Shown here piece by piece: positions 3,660-51,253 of a stretch of 64,000 nucleotides of DNA (positions within the stretch are counted from its first letter, which is position 1; each line of letters starts with the position of its first letter). Source of the DNA: Candidatus Magasanikiibacteriota bacterium (GTDB lineage: Bacteria; Patescibacteriota; Patescibacteriia; Magasanikbacterales; GWA2-37-8). The stretch is taken from assembly GCA_017991415.1 (NCBI GenBank), contig JAGOQR010000001.1:341992-405991 (forward strand), in the 5' to 3' direction. The notes beneath the pieces are model-generated. The model ran no database searches, was not told the DNA's origin, and saw only the letters and a program-made list of their open reading frames with translations. The translations under genes and the position numbers were made by a program.

Positions 3660-4811
3660 ATGGCTCTAAATGAAACCGAACAATTACGCCATCTTCTTGA
3701 AAAGAGTGGGCATATTTTACTCGTTGTTAATTCCAACCAAAATACGGATGCTCTTTGTGCAGCCATGGCTTGGAAAAAACTACTTGAAAAACAACGCAAG
3801 CAAGTCGACATTATTGCCGACAATTTTGTTTTACCAAAAAACCTTAAATTCCTGAAAGGTCTCGAAGAGGTGCAGCCGCAGCTGTCTCATTTACAAAAAT
3901 TTATTCTAAAAGTAGATATTAGCAACGTAAAAATAGATACACTCAGCTATGATATAAAGGACAACTGGCTCTCAATTTATTTAACACCAAAACAAGGGAT
4001 CATCACTAAAAATGAATTGCGCACTGCTCAATCTGGTTTAAAATACGACCTAATCATTTCAATAAATGCCCAAGACCTAGAGTCGCTTGGAAATATTTTT
4101 TTAAACAACACTGATTTATTTTACAAAGTACCAATTATTAATTTTGACAACCATCCTGGCAATGAACATTTTGGACAAGTGAATTTTGTAGATTTAAGCG
4201 CCACTTCCATCTCCGAAAGTATTTATAAAATAATGGCCCAACTATTTGAACCAGATATTGATGCCACGATGGCAAATTTTTTATTAACAGGGATGATTAG
4301 CCAAACACAAAGTTTCAAAACGTCTAACGTCAGTCCTAACACGCTCAATCTCGCCAGCAAATTAATGAGCTTAGGCGCAGATCGAGAAAAAATTGTAAAA
4401 AATTTATATCGCACCAAATCTATTGCCTCACTTCGTATTTGGGGTATTGCACTTACCCATATGGAAAACGATCCAAAACTTGGATTGGTTTGGACCACAA
4501 TTACCAGAGAAGATTTTGCCCGAACTGGAGCAAGCGAAGACGAGCTACAAGACCTTACCGAAGAACTAGTCCACAACTCTCCTGAAGCCAAAATTATTCT
4601 TTTCCTTAACGAAGATACGAAAGGAGAAAATAAAGTGCATGGTTTTCTATACTCAGACAAACAACATGATGCTAAATTACTTTTACAAGGCTTTCAACCA
4701 GAAGGCAATAAAAAAACTGCCTCTTTTGTAATAGCTGACAAAACTATAAAGGAAGTGGAAACGGAAGTGCTCGCAAAAATTAAAAAAATGATTGGCGATG
4801 CGAACCTTTAA
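3660..4811 (+). CDS. DHH-family phosphoesterase (NrnA-like oligoribonuclease / pAp phosphatase)
   Basis: 383 aa. DHH-superfamily N-terminal domain with an NFDNHPGN motif and a DHHA1-like C-terminal region. Size fits NrnA. Confidence 0.65.
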   Translation: MALNETEQLRHLLEKSGHILLVVNSNQNTDALCAAMAWKKLLEKQRKQVDIIADNFVLPKNLKFLKGLEEVQPQLSHLQKFILKVDISNVKIDTLSYDIKDNWLSIYLTPKQGIITKNELRTAQSGLKYDLIISINAQDLESLGNIFLNNTDLFYKVPIINFDNHPGNEHFGQVNFVDLSATSISESIYKIMAQLFEPDIDATMANFLLTGMISQTQSFKTSNVSPNTLNLASKLMSLGADREKIVKNLYRTKSIASLRIWGIALTHMENDPKLGLVWTTITREDFARTGASEDELQDLTEELVHNSPEAKIILFLNEDTKGENKVHGFLYSDKQHDAKLLLQGFQPEGNKKTASFVIADKTIKEVETEVLAKIKKMIGDANL

Positions 4812-6385
4812 ATAAGAGGCTCCCCGGTCATATCTTCTGGCTGACCTACTCCCAATAATTTTAAAACCGTTGGTGCCACGTCTGCCAACACACCGACCGG
4901 TTGCATGAGACTTAAATCGCCTTCTGGCGGATCTCCAGACGGCCCTGCTTGACCCATAAAATCTTGCCCTATAATAATAAGCGGAACTGGATTAGTTGAA
5001 TGCTCTTTATCCATTTCTCCTGTTTGTAAATTACTCATTTCTTCGGCATTGCCATGATCTGCTGTTATTACCATAACTCCATTTTGGGCTAAGGTATGAT
5101 TGGCAATATCTCCTAAACACTTATCAATAATTTTGCAGGCCTTGATACCTGCCTCCAAATTGCCTGTGTGGCCAACCATATCCGCATTGGCGAGGTTGAG
5201 GACAATAAAATCATACCCCCCCTTATCAATTATTTTATTTACTTCTTTGGTAATTTCTAAAGCAGACATTTCTGGTTTTTGATCATAGCTTGGCACTCGA
5301 GCCGAAGGAATAAGTAATCGCTCTTCTCCTGGAAACGGCTCTTCTACTGTGCCATTTAGGAAAAAGGTTACGTGGGCATATTTTTCTGTTTCTGCAACAT
5401 GCATTTGTTTGAGACCTGCTTTGCTTATGACCTCCGCCAAACAATTATGCACTGCCATTGGAGCAAACGCTACGGCCACTGGTAAGTTTTTTTCATACTC
5501 CGTCATAGTCACCACAAACAAATCTTTTATATACTCTTTAGAAAATTTGTTAAAAGATGGCACTGCAAAAGCCTCGGCTAGCTCGCGACCTCTATCTGGT
5601 CTAAAGTTAAAAAATATTACCGCATCACCAGAATCTACTGTTGCGACAGGTTTGTTTTTTGATGTTAAAACTGTTGGAATAAATTCTTCATCGTAATTTT
5701 TTTGCGCATACGACTGGTCGATGGCTGCAAGCGCATCGCTATTATTTCTATCCGCTTTACCTGCCACAATAGCTTGGTACGCTTTTTCACACCTATCCCA
5801 TCTATTATCTCGATCCATAGCAAAATAACGCCCCGATAAAGTTGCAATCTTACCAACTTTTAATGTATCTATTTTTTCTTGAAGCTCGGTGATAAACTCT
5901 CGGCCAGAATTATATAGCGCATCACGCCCATCAAGAATAGCGTGCACAAAAACATTTTTGGTTAATTTTTCTTTTTTACATAATTCAAGCAACGCATACA
6001 GATGCTCATTACTTGAATGAACATTACCAGAACTTACCAACCCAACTAAATGAAGCTTGGAATTATTTTTTTTAACCTTTTCTATAGCTGATAAAAAAGC
6101 TTGATTTTCAAAAAAACTACCTTCGTCGATTGACCTGTTTATTCGTGGGCAACTTTGATAATAGACTCTTCCCGCCCCAATATTAAGATGGCCGACTTCG
6201 GAGTTTCCCATTTCTCCAAACATTAAACCCACCTCGTTGCCAGAGGCGTGCACAGTCATGGTTGGGTAATTTTGAAGAAATTTTGCAAAATTTGGTGTTT
6301 CCGCTTTGGTAATAGCATTACCATCTACACTCGGAGCCACTCCCCAACCATCCATTATCACTAGCACAACAGGCTTATACTTCAT
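4808..6385 (-). CDS. gpmI: 2,3-bisphosphoglycerate-independent phosphoglycerate mutase (copy 1)
   Basis: 525 aa. N-terminal MDGWG and catalytic serine motif GNSEVGHLNIGAGR. Alkaline-phosphatase superfamily iPGM architecture. Confidence 0.9.
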   Translation of the reverse strand: MKYKPVVLVIMDGWGVAPSVDGNAITKAETPNFAKFLQNYPTMTVHASGNEVGLMFGEMGNSEVGHLNIGAGRVYYQSCPRINRSIDEGSFFENQAFLSAIEKVKKNNSKLHLVGLVSSGNVHSSNEHLYALLELCKKEKLTKNVFVHAILDGRDALYNSGREFITELQEKIDTLKVGKIATLSGRYFAMDRDNRWDRCEKAYQAIVAGKADRNNSDALAAIDQSYAQKNYDEEFIPTVLTSKNKPVATVDSGDAVIFFNFRPDRGRELAEAFAVPSFNKFSKEYIKDLFVVTMTEYEKNLPVAVAFAPMAVHNCLAEVISKAGLKQMHVAETEKYAHVTFFLNGTVEEPFPGEERLLIPSARVPSYDQKPEMSALEITKEVNKIIDKGGYDFIVLNLANADMVGHTGNLEAGIKACKIIDKCLGDIANHTLAQNGVMVITADHGNAEEMSNLQTGEMDKEHSTNPVPLIIIGQDFMGQAGPSGDPPEGDLSLMQPVGVLADVAPTVLKLLGVGQPEDMTGEPLI

Positions 6386-6420: not shown

Positions 6421-7971
6421 CTAAACTAAACTCTGGGCTGTCATCTCTTTTGGCTTTTCTATATCCATCATTTTTAAAATGGTTGGCGCTACATTTGCCA
6501 ATTTTCCATTTGCTAACTTACGCGGTGTTTTTACCCGACTATTTATCAGAATAAACGGTACTGGGTTAATAGAGTGTTCGGTGTCTGGCTCCCCACTTTC
6601 TGGGTTTATCATTACTTCAATATTACCATGATCGGCAGTAATAATTCCCTGACCATGATTTTTGATTACTGCATTCATTATTTGTTCTATACTTTTATCA
6701 ATAACAGAAACGGCTTTTTGAGCGGCCATAAAATTACCCGTATGCCCCACCATATCCATGTTCGCAAAATTTACTGCAATAAAATCATACTCCTTTGAGT
6801 TTATAGCTGCAACCGTATAATTGGTCAGCTGCTTGGCGCTCATCTCTGGTTTTTCAGCAAAATTTTTAGCATCTGGGGAAGCAATTTTTACCCAATTTTC
6901 ATCACAAAAATGTTGCGCATAGCCTCCGTTAAGAAAATACGTAATGTGAGCAAATTTTTCAGACTCAGCTATATACATCTGCTTTCGCGGACACAGGGAT
7001 TGCACCAAACCGTTAGTTACATCTCGACTCGGAAACGCCGTTAATACCCCTGGTAAATCTGGACCAAAATCTGAGAGAGCAACAAAACGAATATTTTTTG
7101 GACATTTCGATCTAGTAAATGAATCGAGGTTCATTTCTTTAAAATTAGGCTGCACAAATGCTTTGGTAAGTTCTCGAGCCCGATCACTGCGTAAATTAAA
7201 AAAGAATACTGCGTCATTATTTTTTATCGTTGCCACTGGACGATTTTTTTCCATAATAACTGTGGGGGCCAAAAATTCGTCTGTGTCACCCATATTATAC
7301 GAATTACGCAAAGCTTCTTCGGGCGAACTAGCTTTTTTTCCTTTACCCAAAACGAGAGCGTCATAGGCCTGCTTAACTCGCTCCCAACTCTTATTCCTAT
7401 CCATTGCATAAAATCGCCCCATTAGAGTTGCGACTTTTTCATTGCCATGAAAATATTTTTCTAATAATCTTAAATGCTTTTGTGCTTCATACTGACCAGA
7501 ATCTCTGCCGTCAGTAAAAAGATGCAAATATACTTTTTTAATCTTCTCTCTATGAACTAAATCAAGCAGCGCATACAAATGCTCTGGGTTAGAGTGAGCA
7601 CTATTATGATTGGAGAGGAGCCCCATTAAATGCACAGCGGTATTATATTTTTTTACATGGTGCATAGCCTGATGAAATGCATTGTTTTTGAAAAATACAC
7701 CATCTTTAATTGATTGGGATATGTAGAGTGCGTCCTGAAGAACAACCCGTCCCGCCCCCAAATTGAGGTGGCCTGCTTCACTGTTACCTTCTTGGCCTGG
7801 AAACAACCCAACACTTTCACCACTTGCCTCTAATGTACAGTTTGGATATTTTTTAATCGCTGAAAAATAAAACGGGGCTGTTTTGGGTGTGATGGGATTA
7901 CCTGGGTCTTTCTGACTACCCACACCCCAACCATCAACAATAATTAAAACGGTGTTTTTTGTTTCTGCCAT
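6421..7971 (-). CDS. gpmI: 2,3-bisphosphoglycerate-independent phosphoglycerate mutase paralog (copy 2)
   Basis: 516 aa with VDGWG and GNSEAGHLNLGAGR motifs. Clearly a paralog of the adjacent gene, with the catalytic Ser retained. Confidence 0.85.
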   Translation of the reverse strand: MAETKNTVLIIVDGWGVGSQKDPGNPITPKTAPFYFSAIKKYPNCTLEASGESVGLFPGQEGNSEAGHLNLGAGRVVLQDALYISQSIKDGVFFKNNAFHQAMHHVKKYNTAVHLMGLLSNHNSAHSNPEHLYALLDLVHREKIKKVYLHLFTDGRDSGQYEAQKHLRLLEKYFHGNEKVATLMGRFYAMDRNKSWERVKQAYDALVLGKGKKASSPEEALRNSYNMGDTDEFLAPTVIMEKNRPVATIKNNDAVFFFNLRSDRARELTKAFVQPNFKEMNLDSFTRSKCPKNIRFVALSDFGPDLPGVLTAFPSRDVTNGLVQSLCPRKQMYIAESEKFAHITYFLNGGYAQHFCDENWVKIASPDAKNFAEKPEMSAKQLTNYTVAAINSKEYDFIAVNFANMDMVGHTGNFMAAQKAVSVIDKSIEQIMNAVIKNHGQGIITADHGNIEVMINPESGEPDTEHSINPVPFILINSRVKTPRKLANGKLANVAPTILKMMDIEKPKEMTAQSLV

Positions 7972-16151: not shown

Positions 16152-17147
16152 TTAAGCAGCGTACATCTCTGCAATTTCTACCAATCTATTTGCATACCCA
16201 ACTTCATTATCATACCAGGCAATCACCTTTACCAAATTTCCTCCTACTACATTGGTTAAACTTAAATCAACGGTAGAAGAATTTGCATTGCCAATAAAAT
16301 CAGATGAGACGAGCTGTTCGGTTGTAGTGCCAAGCACACCCTTAAATCGCTCTGTCTTTGAAGCATCAACCAGCGCTTTGTTTATTTCTTCTTTAGTTAC
16401 ATTTTTTTTAAGCAAGACAGTCATATCAGACAAAGAAACTGTTGGTACTGGCACGCGTAACGCCAACCCATCAAACACACCTTGTATGGCAGGAATTACT
16501 TCAGTTACCGCAATAGCCGCGCCGGTGGTGGTTGGCACAATATTTTCAGCGGCAGCTCTGGCTCTGCGCAAATCTTTATGTGGACCATCTTGCAAATTTT
16601 GATCAGCCGTATACCCATGCACCGTACTCATCATAGCCTTATCAATACCAAATTTCTCATTAAGCACTGCCATTACCGGGCCAATGCTATTGGTCGTACA
16701 AGACGCATTATTAATAACAGAGCTTGTTTCTTTTTTGCATTTAGCACAGTTTACCGCGCGTACATAGGTTGGCACATCGCCGCCTTTAGCGGGCGCGCTA
16801 ATGACTACTTTTTTGGCGCCAGCTTTTACATGTAATTCGGCGCCAGCTTTATCCGTAAACCTACCAGTACATTCAAGCACTACATCTACTTTTAATTTTG
16901 CCCACGGCAAAAGACTCGGATCTTTTTCGGCAAACACGGGAATTTTTTTACCTTTAACAATTAAATTTTTTTCATCGTATTCTACCGACAAATCATAGGT
17001 GCCATATGCCGTATCATACTTGAGCAAATGAGCAAGTGTTTTGGTGTCAGTTAAATCATTGATACCAACAATTTTATGCTTTTTAGCAAAGGCGACTTTG
17101 AATGCTTGACGACCAATTCGGCCAAAACCATTAATTGCTATATTCAT
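16152..17147 (-). CDS. gap: glyceraldehyde-3-phosphate dehydrogenase
   Basis: 331 aa. N-terminal INGFGRIGR Rossmann motif and catalytic ASCTTNS. Confidence 0.95.
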   Translation of the reverse strand: MNIAINGFGRIGRQAFKVAFAKKHKIVGINDLTDTKTLAHLLKYDTAYGTYDLSVEYDEKNLIVKGKKIPVFAEKDPSLLPWAKLKVDVVLECTGRFTDKAGAELHVKAGAKKVVISAPAKGGDVPTYVRAVNCAKCKKETSSVINNASCTTNSIGPVMAVLNEKFGIDKAMMSTVHGYTADQNLQDGPHKDLRRARAAAENIVPTTTGAAIAVTEVIPAIQGVFDGLALRVPVPTVSLSDMTVLLKKNVTKEEINKALVDASKTERFKGVLGTTTEQLVSSDFIGNANSSTVDLSLTNVVGGNLVKVIAWYDNEVGYANRLVEIAEMYAA

Positions 17148-17165
17148 ACACGATAATGAGTGAGC

Positions 17166-17193
17166 GAAGTTATTAAATGTGTTTAATAACTTC
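17166..17193. promoter_or_regulatory. perfect 12-bp inverted repeat GAAGTTATTAAA-tgtg-TTTAATAACTTC upstream of gap
   Basis: Arms 17166-17177 and 17182-17193. Lies 19-46 nt upstream of the gap start codon on the minus strand. Candidate operator or 5' leader hairpin. Confidence 0.35.
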
Positions 17194-17255
17194 CGAACGA
17201 ATAAGTGTATATGGACTTGAGCCCATATATTGAAATGAATGAGGAAATAAATAAA

Positions 17256-38014: not shown

Positions 38015-38542
38015 TCAAGCTACCAACCGAACTGCATAATAAGAAATAGTGGCTACAAACCCGGCCACAACAGCCCCTCCTAAAATATCGAGCGGGTAGT
38101 GTACACCCGCATACACTCGCCCCCAAACTACCCACAGAGCCATAACTCCCAAAGCCCACGCACCTGGTAAATTAAAAATACCAGCCATAAAGAAAACGAG
38201 AAAGGCAGAAAAACTATGATCGGAAGGGAAGGATTTCCAACTCATCAGTGGCTTAAATAAAAATTTAATATATGGATATGAAACATATGGCCGAGGTTCG
38301 CGCACAGATAGTGCCAAACCCAGATTAATCAACCAGCCCACACACCACGCACCAAACAAAAATGCTAACACCCAAAAAGTTTTGGTCTTATCAGGCATAA
38401 TATCAACAAACGTTGCCCCTATATACCAAGCAATCATCGCCAGAATCACCCATTCTGCGCCAGCCCGACCAAAACTATCAAGCAATTTTGATTTGCCTAC
38501 CAAGCTGTTAATTTTGAGAAAAATTTTAGCATTTAGGTCCAT
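38015..38542 (-). CDS. PAP2-family phosphatase (undecaprenyl-diphosphatase-like)
   Basis: 175 aa membrane protein with PAP2 motifs (KplmswkSFPSDHS ... GVHYPLD). Confidence 0.7.
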   Translation of the reverse strand: MDLNAKIFLKINSLVGKSKLLDSFGRAGAEWVILAMIAWYIGATFVDIMPDKTKTFWVLAFLFGAWCVGWLINLGLALSVREPRPYVSYPYIKFLFKPLMSWKSFPSDHSFSAFLVFFMAGIFNLPGAWALGVMALWVVWGRVYAGVHYPLDILGGAVVAGFVATISYYAVRLVA

Positions 38543-38596
38543 ATGATTTGATATACTTTAACAGTTTAACCATGGTTTGGCAATGCCATCTATGAC

Positions 38597-38624
38597 TTGA
38601 AATTATTACCAAAGCTGCTATACT
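38597..38624 (+). promoter_or_regulatory. candidate promoter for the tRNA-Ile locus (TTGAAA-N16-TGcTATACT, extended -10)
   Basis: -35-like 38597-38602 and -10 TATACT 38619-38624 preceded by TGC. About 15 nt upstream of the first tRNA fragment. Confidence 0.4.
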
Positions 38625-38638
38625 GAGCTCTATATTAA

Positions 38639-38675
38639 GCGCCCGTAGCTCAGTGGTTAGAGCACTGCCCTTATA
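38639..38675 (+). tRNA. tRNA-Ile(UAU) 5' fragment (nt 1-37, ends inside the anticodon loop)
   Basis: Identical to the first 37 nt of the intact copy at 38806 (GCGCCCGTAGCTCAGTGGTTAGAGCACTGCCCTTATA), then diverges. Confidence 0.6.
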
Positions 38676-38724
38676 TTTACTAGGGAGAGGGAAAGAGGGA
38701 GAGAGCTCACTCTTTCACCGACCG

Positions 38725-38755
38725 ACGTAAATATATCCACGTCGTTCGCGGAAAA
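38725..38755 (+). repeat. 31-bp direct repeat, copy 1 (ACGTAAATATATCCACGTCGTTCGCGGAAAA)
   Basis: Exact second copy at 38905-38935. Contains an internal hairpin GACGT-N10-ACGTC. Confidence 0.7.
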
Positions 38756-38805
38756 CATATTTATTAGCTAATAACAAAACGCCAGTTTCCGGTGTGCCAG
38801 TCAAT

Positions 38806-38878
38806 GCGCCCGTAGCTCAGTGGTTAGAGCACTGCCCTTATAAGGCAGGGGTCGACGGTTCAAATCCATCCGGGCGCA
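38806..38878 (+). tRNA. tRNA-Ile with UAU anticodon (intact copy)
   Basis: Hand-folded cloverleaf: acceptor GCGCCCG/CGGGCGC, D-stem GCTC/GAGC, anticodon stem CTGCC/GGCAG with loop CTTATAA (anticodon TAT), T-arm GACGG-TTCAAAT-CCATC (one C-A mismatch), discriminator A, CC encoded. D-arm resembles bacterial tRNA-Ile2. Confidence 0.8.
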
Positions 38879-38904
38879 CCGGAAACTTGTATTTTTTATA
38901 AGCA

Positions 38905-38935
38905 ACGTAAATATATCCACGTCGTTCGCGGAAAA
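38905..38935 (+). repeat. 31-bp direct repeat, copy 2
   Basis: Identical to 38725-38755. Confidence 0.7.
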
Positions 38936-38971
38936 TGAAAAATAATTTTCATTTTACCACTCACTAGTGGA

Positions 38972-39011
38972 TATAAGGCAGGGGTCGACGGTTCAAATCC
39001 ATCCGGGCGCA
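38972..39011 (+). tRNA. tRNA-Ile(UAU) 3' fragment (nt 34-73)
   Basis: Identical to the 3' part of the intact copy from anticodon position 34 (TATAAGGCAGGGGTCGACGGTTCAAATCCATCCGGGCGCA). Confidence 0.6.
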
Positions 39012-39035
39012 CCATCTGAGCTTAAAAATAAAAAT

Positions 39036-39332
39036 ATGCCTGGTCTAAAAAACATGATTACTGGCGCCTCCAAACTACCATCCAAACCTGGCTTAGGTAA
39101 TTTTTTAAACAGACCAAAACCTGGCCTTACCAGTATTACCCACCAAAACAAACCAACAGCTTCTTTTCATCAATTTGGAGATGCAGTGAGCCATACACAA
39201 AATAATGAACGTTCAGGAAAAATTTTTGGCAGCATTAACAGAGCAATAAAAAACAAACTTGATTCTGGCCTTAACGCTCCTTCTGGCAAAAATAATACTC
39301 CCCCTAACACCAACTTTAGACCAAAAATTTAA
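39036..39332 (+). CDS. hypothetical low-complexity small protein (98 aa, P/G/K/N-rich)
   Basis: ATG at 39036-39038. The ORF track starts earlier at a GTG inside the tRNA 3' fragment. No SD and no recognisable domain, so it may be non-coding. Confidence 0.3.
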   Translation: MPGLKNMITGASKLPSKPGLGNFLNRPKPGLTSITHQNKPTASFHQFGDAVSHTQNNERSGKIFGSINRAIKNKLDSGLNAPSGKNNTPPNTNFRPKI

Positions 39333-49170: not shown

Positions 49171-49252
49171 GGACGAGTGGCGGAACTGGTATACGCGTAC
49201 GTCTCAGAAGCGTATGGAGCAATCCTTGAGAGTTCGAGTCTCTCCTCGTCCA
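49171..49252 (+). tRNA. tRNA-Leu(CAG), class II with long variable arm
   Basis: Hand fold: acceptor GGACGAG/CTCGTCC, 3-bp D-stem with D-loop GAACTGGTATA, anticodon stem TACGT/GCGTA with loop CTCAGAA (anticodon CAG), 13-nt variable arm, T-arm GAGAG-TTCGAGT-CTCTC, discriminator A. D-arm matches bacterial tRNA-Leu. Confidence 0.8.
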
Positions 49253-49366
49253 CATGCACAATCTAATATATTAAATAATAAAAACCCTTTTTCCAAACTT
49301 CAAACTGGAAATCAAGGAAATTCAATTTTTCTCATACAAAAAATTGGATCTAACTTATACACGTTT

Positions 49367-51253
49367 ATGACAACCAGATACTCAGCCAGCCCCAGCCAAA
49401 ATTCACAAGCAGGCAGCCCAAACAGACAACCTCTCGCTCCACAAGCAGCGCCGTTTCCTGTGCGCCCTCACAACTCAACTATGAACCCTCAAAGGCAGCG
49501 AAGGACCTTTCAGACTAATAGACCTACCAATAACCTACGACCACCGACCAAGCCAACAGAAGGTTCTTCGTTCGCCCGTTTTCGCGTGGAAGAAAAAAAA
49601 TTAAGAGTAGCTGTTATCGGCGGCCTCGAAGAGGTTGGCCGCAACTGTACATTGTTTGAATATGGCGAGGATATTATTTTGGTAGATATGGGCCTCCAAT
49701 TCCCCGAAGAAGACATGCCAGGTATCGACTACATTATTCCTAATATGTCGTACCTAAAGGGTAAAGAAAAAAATATTCGCGGTGTTATTATTACCCATGG
49801 TCACTACGACCATATTGGCGGCATCCCTCATTTGATTCCAAAAATAGGCTTCCCTCCGATCTACGCCTTGCCTATGACCAATAGCATTATTAAAAAACGC
49901 CAAGAAGATTTTAAAGATACTGGCAAATTTTCAATTAATAATGTAAAGCTTACCGACAAGCTACATCTTGGTTCTTTTGAAGTAGAGTTTTTCCATGTTA
50001 ACCATAATATTCCTGATTCCATGGGAATCGTCATTCGCAGCCCAGAGGGCGTAGTCATTCATACTGGAGATTGGAAATTTGACTATCAACCAGTGGGAGA
50101 ACCACCAGCCGATCTGCAACGCATTGCCCGCATTGGCGACCAGGGAGTATTAGCACTAATGAGTGATTCAACTAATGCCATGATGCCAGGTCATCAAACT
50201 TCGGAAACAGAAATTGGCGGAAATTTGGAAACAATCATTCAAAAAGCTCCGGGCCGCATTATTATCGGCGCCTTTTCCTCACTTCTATCTCGCATCAAAA
50301 TGCTTATCGAGCTTTCGGAAAAGCATGGCAAGGTTGTGGCTTTAGGTGGATTTAGTATGAAAAGCAACGTAGAGATCGCCAAAGAACTGGGCTACATGAA
50401 ATTTAACCCAAAAATTCTTATTGACATGCAGCAGGTAGAAAAATATCCGCCTAATAAAGTTGTAATTATTTGTACTGGTGCCCAGGGAGAAAAGAATGCC
50501 TCATTAATGCGCATTGCCACTGGTGAACACCGAGATATTAAACTTGTACCTGGCGACACCGTTGTGTTTTCTTCTTCAGTTATTCCTGGGAACGAACGCA
50601 CAGTCCAACGCCTTAAAGATACGCTATTTAGGAAAGGAGCAGAAGTAGTCCACAACGAAATGATGGACGTGCATGCTGGTGGCCATGCCAAAGCCGAAGA
50701 AGTAAAACTGATGCTGACACTCCTCAAACCAAAATATTTTATCCCTCAGCACGGCAACCATTACATGCTTCGCCTCAATGGCCGTATCGCCGTTTCAATG
50801 GGCATGCCAAAAGAAAATATTTTTATTGCTGACAATGGCCAGGTAATGGAATTTAAAAATGGCGCCGGTGTTTTGACCAAGGAAAAATTGCCTTCAGACC
50901 ATGTCTTTGTAGACGGACTTGGCGTAAGTGATGAAACAAATATTGTGCTCCGTGATAGACAGGTACTTGCAGAAGATGGCATGGTGGTAATTATTGCAAC
51001 CGTAGATAGCAAAACTGGAAAACTAATCCAAAATCCAGATATTATTTCTCGTGGTTTTGTCTTCTTAAAAGAACATAAGGAACTAATTGAGGACTTACGT
51101 CATCGAGTGAAAAAAATGGTAACTGATTCCGACCCTCTTTCTTGGGCAGATACCAATAATATAAAAAATAAACTTCGGGATTATGTTGGTCAATTCCTAT
51201 TTACTAAAACAGAAAAAAGGCCAATGATATTACCTGTTGTAATTGAAGTCTAA
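49367..51253 (+). CDS. rnj: ribonuclease J (metallo-beta-lactamase/beta-CASP) with a low-complexity N-terminal extension
   Basis: Start set at the ATG at 49367; the ORF track starts inside the tRNA-Leu. Motifs HTGDWKFD and VIITHGHYDHIGG, plus beta-CASP and a C-terminal domain. About 80 aa of P/Q/N/R-rich extension before the catalytic core. Confidence 0.85.
   Translation: MTTRYSASPSQNSQAGSPNRQPLAPQAAPFPVRPHNSTMNPQRQRRTFQTNRPTNNLRPPTKPTEGSSFARFRVEEKKLRVAVIGGLEEVGRNCTLFEYGEDIILVDMGLQFPEEDMPGIDYIIPNMSYLKGKEKNIRGVIITHGHYDHIGGIPHLIPKIGFPPIYALPMTNSIIKKRQEDFKDTGKFSINNVKLTDKLHLGSFEVEFFHVNHNIPDSMGIVIRSPEGVVIHTGDWKFDYQPVGEPPADLQRIARIGDQGVLALMSDSTNAMMPGHQTSETEIGGNLETIIQKAPGRIIIGAFSSLLSRIKMLIELSEKHGKVVALGGFSMKSNVEIAKELGYMKFNPKILIDMQQVEKYPPNKVVIICTGAQGEKNASLMRIATGEHRDIKLVPGDTVVFSSSVIPGNERTVQRLKDTLFRKGAEVVHNEMMDVHAGGHAKAEEVKLMLTLLKPKYFIPQHGNHYMLRLNGRIAVSMGMPKENIFIADNGQVMEFKNGAGVLTKEKLPSDHVFVDGLGVSDETNIVLRDRQVLAEDGMVVIIATVDSKTGKLIQNPDIISRGFVFLKEHKELIEDLRHRVKKMVTDSDPLSWADTNNIKNKLRDYVGQFLFTKTEKRPMILPVVIEV

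Follow-up and report, generated by a model that had tools for sequence, protein, structure and literature searches.

What kind of event leaves an intact tRNA gene lying between the two halves of another copy of itself? This question is raised by a locus in a 64,000-nt stretch of DNA from a Candidatus Magasanikiibacteriota bacterium (assembly GCA_017991415.1, contig JAGOQR010000001.1, positions 341,992-405,991 of the forward strand), which was analyzed as a whole and is called the window hereafter; coordinates are window positions on the plus strand unless the minus strand is indicated. The gene affected encodes tRNA-Ile(UAU), the decoder of the AUA isoleucine codon, and the break falls in its anticodon loop: nucleotides (nts) 1-37 come first, then a 296-bp insert with the same tRNA intact inside it, and nts 34 to the end complete the locus. 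The first-pass annotation had read such a composite from the letters, and a repeat search of the window found it to be real, with perfect repeats between 38639-38675 and 38806-38842 (37/37) and between 38972-39013 and 38839-38880 (42/42). The 31-bp direct repeat reported there was likewise borne out (38725-38755 equals 38905-38935, 31/31), and this 31-mer has only two copies in the 64 kb, with none expected by chance; direct reading of the sequence further agreed with the description of the ACTAG-type ends, the polypurine tract and the two spacers, 130 and 93 bp long. In the ARAGORN run that had been proposed as a check, as well as in Rfam, the inner gene alone, tRNA-Ile(TAT) at 38806-38880, was called at the locus.

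The locus begins with a presumably ancestral sigma-70-like promoter, TTGAAA-16-TGcTATACT (38597..38624; 10/12 match, extended −10), located 5′ of the outer 5′ half. No other promoter-like site has the orientation to drive the locus, none having been found inside the insert, and the same promoter type precedes the simple tRNA in two related loci (L033 and L009) and the inverted locus in a third (L035). The outer 5′ half (38639..38675), apparently an ancestral relic, ends with TATA (nt 34-37), and its upstream flank is homologous to that of the uninterrupted gene in L033. It runs into a 64-nt hairpin module, H+ (38672..38735; CM R1 80.8 bits, with compensatory pairs), which has TATA on both sides, a base helix of TATATTTAC/GTAAATATA and an apical stem whose 5′ arm is the polypurine tract; the fold z-scores of H+ are −5.8 as DNA and −5.9 as RNA. 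In the first copy of the 31-bp repeat (38725..38755), the final 11 nt of H+ are joined to 20 nt that duplicate the beginning of H− (38736-38755). Next lies x2 (38756..38805), the 5′ arm of a long stem around the inner tRNA that was delineated by inverted repeat I4, compensatory pairs and the predicted fold; its core, 38776-38798, can pair with the tRNA 3′-end and the trailer. The inner intact tRNA-Ile(UAU) (38806..38880; ARAGORN, Rfam 70.7 bits) is followed by y1 (38881..38904), the 3′ arm of the long stem, which was recognized as an inverted repeat, whose pairing already starts inside the tRNA 3′-end at 38873 and whose end is a T-run resembling a weak terminator. The second copy of the 31-bp repeat (38905..38935) combines a 7-nt duplicate of the end of H+ (38905-38911) with the first 24 nt of H−, and the 64-nt module H− itself (38912..38975, minus strand; CM R1 88.6 bits on that strand, with compensatory pairs) is an inverted paralogue of H+, with TATATCCAC/GTGGATATA as base helix and a variable loop on an apical stem, AAAATGAAAA/TTTTCATTTT, that does not vary. 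The outer 3′ part (38972..39013), again apparently a relic of the ancestral gene, starts with the second TATA and covers tRNA nt 34-73 plus CC; its downstream flank equals that of the uninterrupted gene in L033.

The insert thus consists of two inverted ~64-nt H copies bounded by TATA, with a ~35-bp stem between them and the tRNA at its tip, so that the cassette can also be described as a tRNA flanked by imperfect inverted repeats of ~110-130 nt. H+ and the reverse complement of H− align over 63-65 nt with ends and structure in common, and the alignment of 11 H copies holds 23 pairs, of which 9 show compensatory changes. The long stem around the tRNA is maintained by 8-9 compensatory pairs across five composite loci (the other four come from related genomes, see below), and in 5/5 composites the two sides of the inner tRNA form colinear inverted repeats. 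Conservation within the cassette is highest in H−, at 86-94% identity in all lineage pairs. The 31-bp repeat proved to be the end of H+ fused to the start of H−, which shows that the two modules are able to abut directly; it is imperfect in L030 and shrunk to about ATATAT in L007 and L035.

These data also revise how the ends of the block are to be understood. The 11/15 terminal inverted repeats of the first-pass annotation do have an inverted likeness, which turned out to belong to the outer ends of two inverted ~64-nt H modules and not to simple termini. A rod in which the left end pairs with the right end, as the terminal-repeat idea and the minimum free energy fold of the single sequence had implied, was rejected: in the five composites, compensatory changes fall within the intra-H helices, and none (0) was found for the H+:H− alternative, so the rod is not what selection maintains. 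Two further candidates were tried for x2. A primer-binding-site-like complement of the tRNA 3′-end, in the style of retroelements, was dropped because the pairing runs on for ~25 nt into the trailer, and a microhomology-mediated template switch from the native leader was dropped because x2 has no resemblance to that leader.

How the site looks without the cassette can be read from the closest relative, L033 (RluD ~88-91%, UvrA 99% and flanks 91% nt identity with the window). There, the same flanks enclose one uninterrupted tRNA, and the alignment has a single large gap of 300 bp, the insert plus the TATA duplication. The TA/TATA duplication noted earlier around the block is therefore TATA on both sides in the window against a single TATA in L033. 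This also corrects the predicted excision. That a deletion could rebuild a perfect tRNA gene holds for 300 bp (38672-38971, equivalently 38676-38975), which is exactly the gap between the window and its empty-site relative; it does not hold for the 296 bp first proposed (38676-38971), the removal of which leaves TATATATA, because TATA is present in both outer fragments. Eleven other relatives likewise have a single intact syntenic tRNA-Ile(TAT) (L006, L008-L013, L042, L044/45), with extra 5′-fragment material upstream of it in L006 and L012. The contig of P0004, with 94% RluD identity, ends short of the tRNA.

Four further Magasanikbacteria lineages, at least, have homologous composites at the same TATA: L030 (JGI Ga0154020) together with L032 (ENA ERZ27250730), L007 (CAZUFD01), L035 (ENA ERZ1760152) and L043 (GCA_964395135). 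A metagenome scan with the right-junction pattern returned a single locus, L030. The presence of the cassette at the same spot in several related species and its lack in the closest relative make it look like a small mobile element. Scars of repeated events at a tRNA attachment site, one of the readings offered by the first-pass annotation, proved partly right: L037 is a partial form with tRNA, Y and the 3′ half only, the outer 5′ half being absent, and extra, older 5′ fragments occur in L007 and L012, which suggests that the site has been hit or rearranged repeatedly.

Which of the tRNA copies serves the cell? tRNA-Ile(UAU) is a single-copy gene in the host genome, and AUA is used at 17 per 1000 codons (23% of Ile codons), so that a replacement tRNA would be needed once the gene is broken. 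The inner tRNA is intact in every composite. In L032 the outer 3′ half carries a single-nucleotide polymorphism, and in L035 it has suffered a deletion; the window, L030, L007 and L043 retain perfect outer halves. Judged from these sequences, the inner tRNA is the working gene and the outer halves are relics, since the only recognizable promoter is the outer one and two relatives show decay of these halves. Within each genome the inner and outer tRNAs are identical, even where the tRNA differs between genomes, as with the variant specific to L043.

A comparison of cassette and host divergence indicates, for one lineage pair, horizontal movement of the cassette. RluD identity is 65-70% across all host pairs and ~68% between the window and L030, and the tRNA flanks of these two are only 56-62% identical. 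Nevertheless, the variable cassette parts x2 and y1 are 93% and 91% identical between them, as against 45-66% in every other pair.

Three readings of the locus had been offered without a choice. Among them, a MITE-like or integrative insertion that brought a replacement tRNA is favoured by the precise empty site, the TATA duplication, the lack of coding capacity, the patchy distribution and the horizontal-transfer signal. We hold with moderate confidence that the composite is a non-autonomous, site-specific, MITE/REPIN-like cassette with its own replacement tRNA, an explanation offered for what is established at the locus, namely its anatomy, precise empty site, recurrence at the same site, hairpin covariation, missing coding capacity, outer-half decay and discordant divergence of cassette and host. 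Under this explanation, the single-copy tRNA-Ile(UAU) gene would have been interrupted at the palindromic TATA of nt 34-37 by a 296-bp non-coding fold-back cassette, arranged as H+, 5′ stem arm, complete tRNA-Ile(UAU), 3′ stem arm and inverted H−, with duplication of TATA. A trans-acting transposase or recombinase acting at TATA probably created the composite. The inner tRNA would substitute for the gene destroyed by the insertion; it would be transcribed from the ancestral promoter via a 167-nt leader (outer 5′ half, H+ and x2) and cut from the precursor. Gained by insertion at one site, the cassette would move between lineages, presumably by uptake and homologous recombination with the 37- and 42-nt tRNA halves as arms, a route that would explain the match of inner and outer tRNA within each genome. 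Its loss or truncation would proceed via recombination between the duplicated tRNA halves: A × A recombination would give the tRNA-Y-3′half form, as in L037, and A × A followed by B × B would restore the simple gene.

There is also a stronger version, which we consider speculative and rather unlikely, in which the cassette is a break-and-rescue selfish element that homes into an essential single-copy tRNA gene at its anticodon loop, uses the cassette hairpins as putative sites for a trans-acting nuclease or recombinase and spreads between CPR lineages via the tRNA-half homology arms; such an element would be tolerated only because it carries the replacement copy. Bolder still, both tRNAs may be made, the outer one through protein-dependent cleavage and ligation in a bacterium.

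In search of the machinery for such movement, no ORF of >39 aa was found in the insert, and neither a transposase, an integrase nor a homing endonuclease was found in the 64-kb window by Pfam for ~45 ORFs and by the public-contig annotation for most others, a search that left out three ORFs of ~100-180 aa. Specifically, Pfam detected no Y1 transposase in the 64 kb, and no mobility enzyme was seen adjoining the cassette in the related loci. Strong H copies (CM R1) were confined to tRNA-Ile loci in the ~64 kb plus 220 kb searched, so the multi-copy hallmark of a MITE does not appear within this DNA. Weak H-like hairpins occur at two unrelated intergenic sites, one in the window (17147..17209; CM R1 19.5 bits, E 0.02) and one in L043 (71-131; CM R1 26.3 bits, E 8e-4); the latter is lineage-specific and closely resembles the former, which is possibly a distant member of the H repeat family. 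No dispersed 31-mer, H− palindrome or H ends were found outside the tRNA-Ile sites in the window and the fetched loci, and scans of viral contigs gave nothing relevant, with two chance matches within coding sequence.

Could the composite have arisen in place and never moved? In this alternative, which we regard as unlikely but serious, a hairpin- or palindrome-mediated duplication arose once in an ancestor and was kept for a role of its hairpins and long stem at the RNA level (a processing or stability signal, or a clamp against mis-pairing), with repeated loss by recombination between the halves and with gene conversion holding these halves identical. The identity of inner and outer tRNA within every genome, the L043-specific variant included, fits in-situ duplication or gene conversion just as well as a mobile cassette. 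In L030 and L007, y1 resembles the native trailer 3′ of the outer 3′ half, which could mean that the inner copy was made locally, and the strong conservation of H−, together with helices kept by compensatory change, could reflect RNA function. The mobility-gene search of the 64-kb window and of the related loci, with its negative outcome, and the restriction of high-scoring H copies to the tRNA locus in the ~64 kb plus 220 kb, hits elsewhere being weak, point the same way and speak against a mobile cassette. What weighs against a purely local origin is the 91-93% identity of x2/y1 between the window and L030, compared with 45-66% in equally distant host pairs, as vertical descent would need many independent precise losses and a special constraint in one pair. 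The clean empty site in L033 argues against it as well. Moreover, every module is bounded by TATA and TATA is duplicated, which looks like insertion chemistry, and the older 5′ fragment in L007 suggests repeated events. An integrase-based origin, in which phage- or ICE-type elements used the tRNA-Ile anticodon loop as attB and then lost their interior, leaving att duplications, is improbable in our judgement. The anticodon loop reportedly figures in the Williams 2002 classification as a classical integrase crossover site, and the layout of L037 is exactly attL (intact tRNA), remnant and attR (3′ fragment); in addition, joining the cassette ends gives ..CACTAGTGGA-TATA-TTTACTAGGG.., an imperfect inverted repeat centred on TATA and loosely like the anticodon arm, CACTGCCCT-TATA-AGGCAGGG. 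However, the duplication takes in the 5′ half besides the 3′ part, an outcome that a standard attP site would not yield, and only the 4 bp of TATA are common at the junctions, too short for the 6-8 bp overlap of tyrosine recombinases. The remnants are, furthermore, the same structured and covarying 296-bp unit in five lineages and not the product of random decay, and the lack of an integrase in the 64 kb (Pfam) and in the insert, as well as the viral contigs without matches, also counts against this origin.

The large tRNA intron suggested by the first-pass annotation was not supported. Here a 375-nt transcript would be processed such that the outer halves are joined and the inner tRNA is released from the "intron". 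The junction does allow placement at the canonical 37/38 position as well as at 35/36, the position of the Patescibacteria group I introns; in predicted folds the insert can be enclosed by the outer acceptor, D and anticodon stems; and four composites have perfect outer halves. Yet Rfam 15 gave no intron family at E≤10 across 38400-39300, and in six related loci searched at the gathering threshold only the tRNA was matched. With the right junction reading ...GTGGA|TATA|AGG, the last intron base is A or U in all five equivalent TATA registers, so an omega-G is not possible; the insert is too short for a group II intron and has no group II ends; and the junctions lie in the regular base helices of the H modules in the predicted, covariation-supported structure, or in a continuous 13-15-bp helix in an alternative predicted fold, with no bulge-helix-bulge (BHB). 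Group I, group II and BHB introns were therefore rejected, on these grounds and on the decay of the outer halves in relatives, where L035 has a broken and L032 a mutated 3′ half and L037 lacks the 5′ half, the inner gene being kept. RNA-level joining is thus very improbable. An assembly artefact across a tandem tRNA repeat, which the first-pass annotation had asked to be excluded, can be dismissed with near certainty, because the same layout recurs with diverged sequence and compensatory changes in at least five independent assemblies from different studies and assemblers. Short-read Logan contigs (k=31) from two samples do end 30 nt inside each outer half. Such breaks say no more than that the assembly graph contains the tRNA repeatedly, and they are no proof of the composite either, because other organisms in a sample with the same tRNA sequence would also break k=31 contigs.

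If the mobile-cassette explanation is true, a small bacterial insertion element offsets its landing in an essential gene by bringing a full spare copy, in contrast to known tRNA-targeting integrative elements, which bring only a 3′ tRNA fragment and an integrase, and a new kind of intervening sequence would join the already unusual set found in the tRNA and rRNA genes of Patescibacteria. For annotation, the locus is a warning that halves of a tRNA on either side of a normal one may be what is left of the original gene. As a system it is tractable too: the 4-bp target is defined, the 64-nt hairpin module covaries, and empty, full and half-deleted alleles occur naturally. It could help to find the enzyme acting on TATA-bounded hairpins in these uncultured bacteria and may bear on the upkeep and exchange of the rare bacterial tRNA-Ile(UAU) gene.

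Our literature search found no description of such a tRNA-carrying arrangement, and the known systems resemble it only in part. Patescibacteria tRNA genes have group I introns in the anticodon loop at position 35/36 (PMC13011429). These share with the insert the phylum, the loop, a similar size range and a patchy distribution, whereas the insert lacks a ribozyme core and omega-G, holds a tRNA and hairpin modules, and has outer exons that decay in relatives. Similarly, the split and permuted tRNA genes of Nanoarchaeota and Cyanidioschyzon have anticodon-loop halves parted by sequence that is able to pair; there, however, the halves are the sole copy and are joined through a BHB endonuclease, whereas here an intact copy lies between the halves and no BHB motif is found. 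Phages, ICEs and genomic islands in tRNA genes likewise target the anticodon loop, keep a working tRNA and leave a duplicated tRNA fragment, which the attL-remnant-attR-like L037 recalls. Unlike these kilobase-sized elements with a 3′ tRNA part and an integrase, the cassette has a whole tRNA, both halves duplicated and no protein gene; neither an integrase within it nor a 3′-only duplication with an identity block across the crossover is seen, and its junctions share TATA only.

Closer parallels are found among small non-autonomous repeats. Bacterial MITEs of the Correia/NEMIS, RUP and ERIC-like kinds, which leave short TA-type duplications, are similarly small, non-coding and fold-back with inverted-repeat ends, as is the 296-bp insert without an ORF >39 aa. 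They too use AT targets with a short duplication, differ in presence between close relatives and are likely co-transcribed with a host gene; TATA on both sides in the window, with one TATA and a 300-bp difference in L033, gives the cassette both a target-site duplication and a precise empty site. No cognate transposase is known for the cassette, and known MITEs carry no gene. The cassette departs from those named MITEs in carrying a functional cargo gene identical to its target, in being seen at one specific site and not at many, and in having ends that are two self-folding hairpin modules instead of simple terminal repeats. A possible further parallel is with PATEs, derived from IS200/IS605, which have subterminal hairpins at either end, insert 3′ of a fixed tetranucleotide with no duplication and go with a TnpA(Y1) in the genome; the cassette has hairpins at both ends, and its two flanking TATA copies may represent the target together with a matching site at the right end, or else a genuine duplication. 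Finally, REPINs are inverted REP doublets mobilized by RAYT of the IS200-IS605 type, and H+ and H− form just such an inverted doublet of a hairpin-forming repeat, two copies acting as one unit with pairing kept by compensation; in contrast to REPINs, which have tens to hundreds of intergenic copies and no gene, the cassette carries a tRNA and has two weak H-like matches elsewhere in the ~64 kb plus 220 kb searched.

The split tRNA-Ile(UAU) locus of the window was found to be laid out as the first-pass annotation had described, with the outer 5′ half (38639-38675) matching nt 1-37 of the intact inner tRNA (38806-38880) at 37/37 positions, the outer 3′ part (38972-39013) matching it from nt 34 to the end at 42/42, and two copies of a 31-mer (38725-38755 and 38905-38935) agreeing at 31/31 with no third copy in the window. 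Both Rfam and ARAGORN, the latter a check proposed in that annotation, called the inner gene alone, as tRNA-Ile with anticodon TAT. Because TATA occurs in both outer fragments, excision of the 296 bp at 38676-38971, which had been expected to recreate a perfect tRNA, leaves TATATATA behind, and restoration of the gene requires the loss of 300 bp. The insert contains no ORF of more than 39 aa. A 121-aa GTG ORF (38967-39332) beginning within the outer 3′ part is an ORF-calling artefact; the true conserved protein there is a clade-specific hypothetical of 98 aa with few homologues, its ATG at 39036.

One intact tRNA-Ile(TAT) was found at the syntenic position in each of 12 related genomes. In the closest relative, L033 (RluD ~88-91% identical by tblastn and global alignment, UvrA 99%, PAP2 94%), the gene is uninterrupted, and the sequences around it, the promoter region upstream and the trailer downstream, correspond to those that flank the outer halves in the window. 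Over ~990 nt of flank the two loci are 91% identical, and their sole large difference is one 300-bp gap (38672-38971); therefore, the window amounts to the L033 arrangement with 296 bp inserted and TATA duplicated. By this sequence comparison, the outer split gene is the ancestral one.

The same composite, that is, 5′ half, X, intact tRNA, Y and 3′ part, where X and Y are the sequences on either side of the inner tRNA, is carried by the near-identical loci L030 (JGI) and L032 (ENA) and by L007, L035 and L043, with X and Y homologous and diverged, while L037 is partial, having the intact tRNA, Y and the 3′ part and lacking the outer 5′ half. As these composites come from different studies and assemblers, the assembly artefact considered in the first-pass annotation is excluded; short-read contigs built at k=31 stop 30 nt inside each outer half, which fits the repeat without proving it. 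The inner tRNA is intact in every case, whereas the outer 3′ part is altered by a SNP in the T stem in L032 and by the loss of 4 nt in L035. Recombination between the two copies of the 5′ half could turn the full composite into a form of the L037 type. In L035 the entire locus is inverted, the tRNA-Ile locus with its TTGAAA/TATACT promoter and cassette (1728-2071) being flipped relative to PAP2 and RluD, unlike in all other genomes.

Comparative folding resolved the insert into three hairpin domains with TATA at the boundaries of each. In Domain I (H+, 38672-38735) the base helix is TATATTTAC/GTAAATATA and the polypurine tract forms one arm of the apical stem, and Domain III (H−, 38912-38975), an inverted paralogue of H+, has the base helix TATATCCAC/GTGGATATA and an invariant stem AAAATGAAAA/TTTTCATTTT with a variable loop. 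The 11 H copies (five H+ and six reverse-complemented H−) align over 63-65 nt with the shared ends TATAT..nCTAGnGAr ... CGAnnGACGn..ATATA, and the consensus hairpin comprises 23 pairs, nine of them compensatory, with up to four pair types at one position. Among the five composites, variable columns covary inside each H (pairs 40-92, 46-85, 285-338 and 287-336) and none covaries between H+ and H−; a fold pairing H+ with H− was rejected, since the covariation lies within each H only. The “terminal inverted repeats” initially reported thus correspond to the outer ends of two modules that each fold on themselves: the inverted ends are present, and the simple paired termini are not. The 31-bp repeat joins the final 11 nt of H+ to the first 24 nt of H− via a shared TATA. 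In the window this junction occurs on either side of the middle domain; the duplication is imperfect in L030 and amounts to no more than ~ATATAT in L007 and L035.

In the middle domain, the 5′ arm x2 and the 3′ arm y1 form an imperfect stem of ~35 bp, with the tRNA at its tip and the 5′ arm additionally pairing with the final 7-8 nt of the tRNA. The arms differ greatly across lineages yet stay complementary, with 8-9 compensatory pairs. Taken as a whole, the sequences flanking the inner tRNA are imperfect inverted repeats of each other, 110-130 nt long and colinear. Shuffled sequences fold far less well than H+, H− or the middle domain, whether modelled as DNA or as RNA (z −4.7 to −6.6). In L043 the 5′ arm (936-949 versus 1015-1030) reads TGGTGCGCC, the complement of the mature ...GGCGCACCA 3′ end, although the gene there continues with CCG, not CCA; in the window, CCG follows the inner tRNA and CCA the outer 3′ part.

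Cassette-bearing hosts are roughly equidistant, with 65-70% RluD identity in all pairs, and the sequence-unconstrained x2 and y1 are 45-66% identical in all pairs except window-L030, where x2 reaches 93% and y1 91%. In this pair, identity is as low as 56-62% for the native tRNA flanks and 64% for the small downstream ORF, so that the cassettes of two distant hosts are more alike than their genomes; the insert is present in some relatives and missing from others, including L033. This discordance between cassette and host similarity, together with the cassette-free L033, is hard to square with vertical descent and points to recent transfer into or between lineages.

An additional outer 5′ fragment in L007, and a similar one beside the simple tRNA of L012, suggests that this gene had already been disrupted in earlier rounds. 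Such tRNA-Ile 5′-half-like leaders lie upstream of the functional gene at 3214-3290 in L007 and 2535-2645 in L012, with a degenerate one at ~3800-3900 in L006. In the first two, a GC-rich hairpin, CCCGCCCG...CGGGCGGG, is inserted exactly between D-loop nt 21 and 22, and the tRNA-like portions have kept full identity with the working gene; this arrangement may date from a previous round of such disruption or represent a conserved leader. Separately, the trailer after the outer 3′ part of L030 resembles y1 well past the tRNA (7366-7395 versus 7480-7500), as in L007, which suggests gene conversion between copies or a local origin of the inner copy, while the window retains the L033-type native trailer.

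The search for further copies of the repeat and termini, envisaged as genome-wide, covered the 64-kb window and 220 kb of related loci: the 31-mer, with its two copies in the window, has none away from the tRNA-Ile sites, and an H covariance model detected strong copies at tRNA-Ile loci only. Two weak matches were obtained at unrelated intergenic sites, 17147-17209 of the window (E 0.02) and 71-131 of L043 (E 8e-4). These two hairpins are closely alike (..ATGAGTGAG..stem-loop..CGAnCGAAT..GTnTATAT), and each is followed by a small TATATG..CCCATATA hairpin; in L043 the stretch with both is 71-163. The start of the small hairpin, TATATGCGGCGAA, also starts x2 in L007, with the variant TATATGCGGCAAA in L035. 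The L043 hairpin occupies a spacer merely 3-43 nt long in five other genomes. H-like hairpins may thus form a dispersed palindromic repeat family of Magasanikbacteria.

The locus is surrounded by housekeeping genes. One flank carries GyrB, SecE, NusG, L11, QueA, YceG, a nucleotidyltransferase and PAP2; the other has a small ORF, RluD, Gmk, L19 and UvrA. The window is assigned to Candidatus Magasanikbacteria (Patescibacteria/CPR) by the relatives of its RluD and by the name that the small ORF bears in the source. AUA is common (17 per 1000 codons, 23% of Ile codons), and an AUA-reading tRNA is therefore needed. Bacteria usually decode AUA with a CAU anticodon and TilS/lysidine; decoding by a tRNA-Ile with a UAU anticodon (38806-38880) is unusual, and neither TilS nor tRNA-Ile(CAU) was seen within the 64-kb window. 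The only good promoter, a sigma-70-like TTGAAA-16-TGcTATACT (38597-38624), precedes the outer 5′ half and none was found within the insert, so that the inner tRNA would most likely derive from a longer transcript whose structured leader measures 167 nt; after the tRNA, y1 contains a T-run resembling a weak terminator. Elsewhere in the window, two tandem iPGM (cofactor-independent phosphoglycerate mutase) paralogues (4808-6385 and 6421-7971) adjoin enolase and PGK, a notable duplication in a reduced CPR genome, and tRNA-Leu(CAG) (49171-49253) overlaps the 5′ end of the longest RNase J ORF (49214-51253), whose real start is presumably further downstream.

At a single position in one gene, the locus thus carries a precisely placed, non-coding fold-back insert with TATA on both sides, and the insert brings that gene's replacement. 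A large tRNA intron, one of the initial readings, was rejected: the insert has no Rfam match even at E≤10, in the search suggested for group I introns and other RNA families, and six related loci matched tRNA only; the final intron base is A or U in all five equivalent junction registers, which makes a group I omega-G impossible; both junctions are predicted to sit in ordinary helices with no bulge-helix-bulge; and the outer halves are mutated in L032 and L035, and the 5′ one is absent in L037, with the inner gene intact. The insert does not belong to the group I introns known at position 35/36 of Patescibacteria tRNA genes (PMC13011429). The same observations make RNA splicing of the outer halves less likely. 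Of the proposed scar of repeated att-site events, the L007 and L012 fragments suggest the repetition; an integrase as its cause is less likely, since Pfam annotation of ~45 window ORFs and the neighbours annotated on public contigs revealed no integrase, transposase or homing endonuclease.

Most likely, the insert is a non-autonomous MITE/REPIN-like cassette worked in trans at its TATA-bounded hairpins. The initial suggestion of a MITE-like insertion with its own replacement tRNA is favoured by the precise empty site in L033 and the TATA duplication, and from these comparisons we infer its mobility. The main rival is a local rearrangement, retained because its RNA has a role and kept uniform by gene conversion. 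It is supported by the identity of inner and outer copies, the resemblance of y1 in L030 and L007 to the native trailer, the 86-94% sequence conservation of H− and the lack of annotated mobility genes; the window-L030 arm identities and the cassette-free L033 are difficult to reconcile with the vertical descent it would entail. Under the mobile-cassette reading, an enzyme acting in trans would work on the hairpins, and the insertion would be tolerated in an essential gene by bringing a spare tRNA copy. Spread between genomes would plausibly proceed by DNA uptake and homologous recombination via the 37- and 42-nt tRNA halves, which would automatically keep inner and outer sequences identical, as they are even for the divergent L043 tRNA.

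Our literature search turned up no account of a cassette that interrupts a tRNA gene and holds the same tRNA in full. The nearest known systems, namely MITEs with TA-type duplications, REPINs, tRNA-restoring integrative elements and the anticodon-loop group I introns of the same phylum, each share individual features with the cassette, but not their combination.
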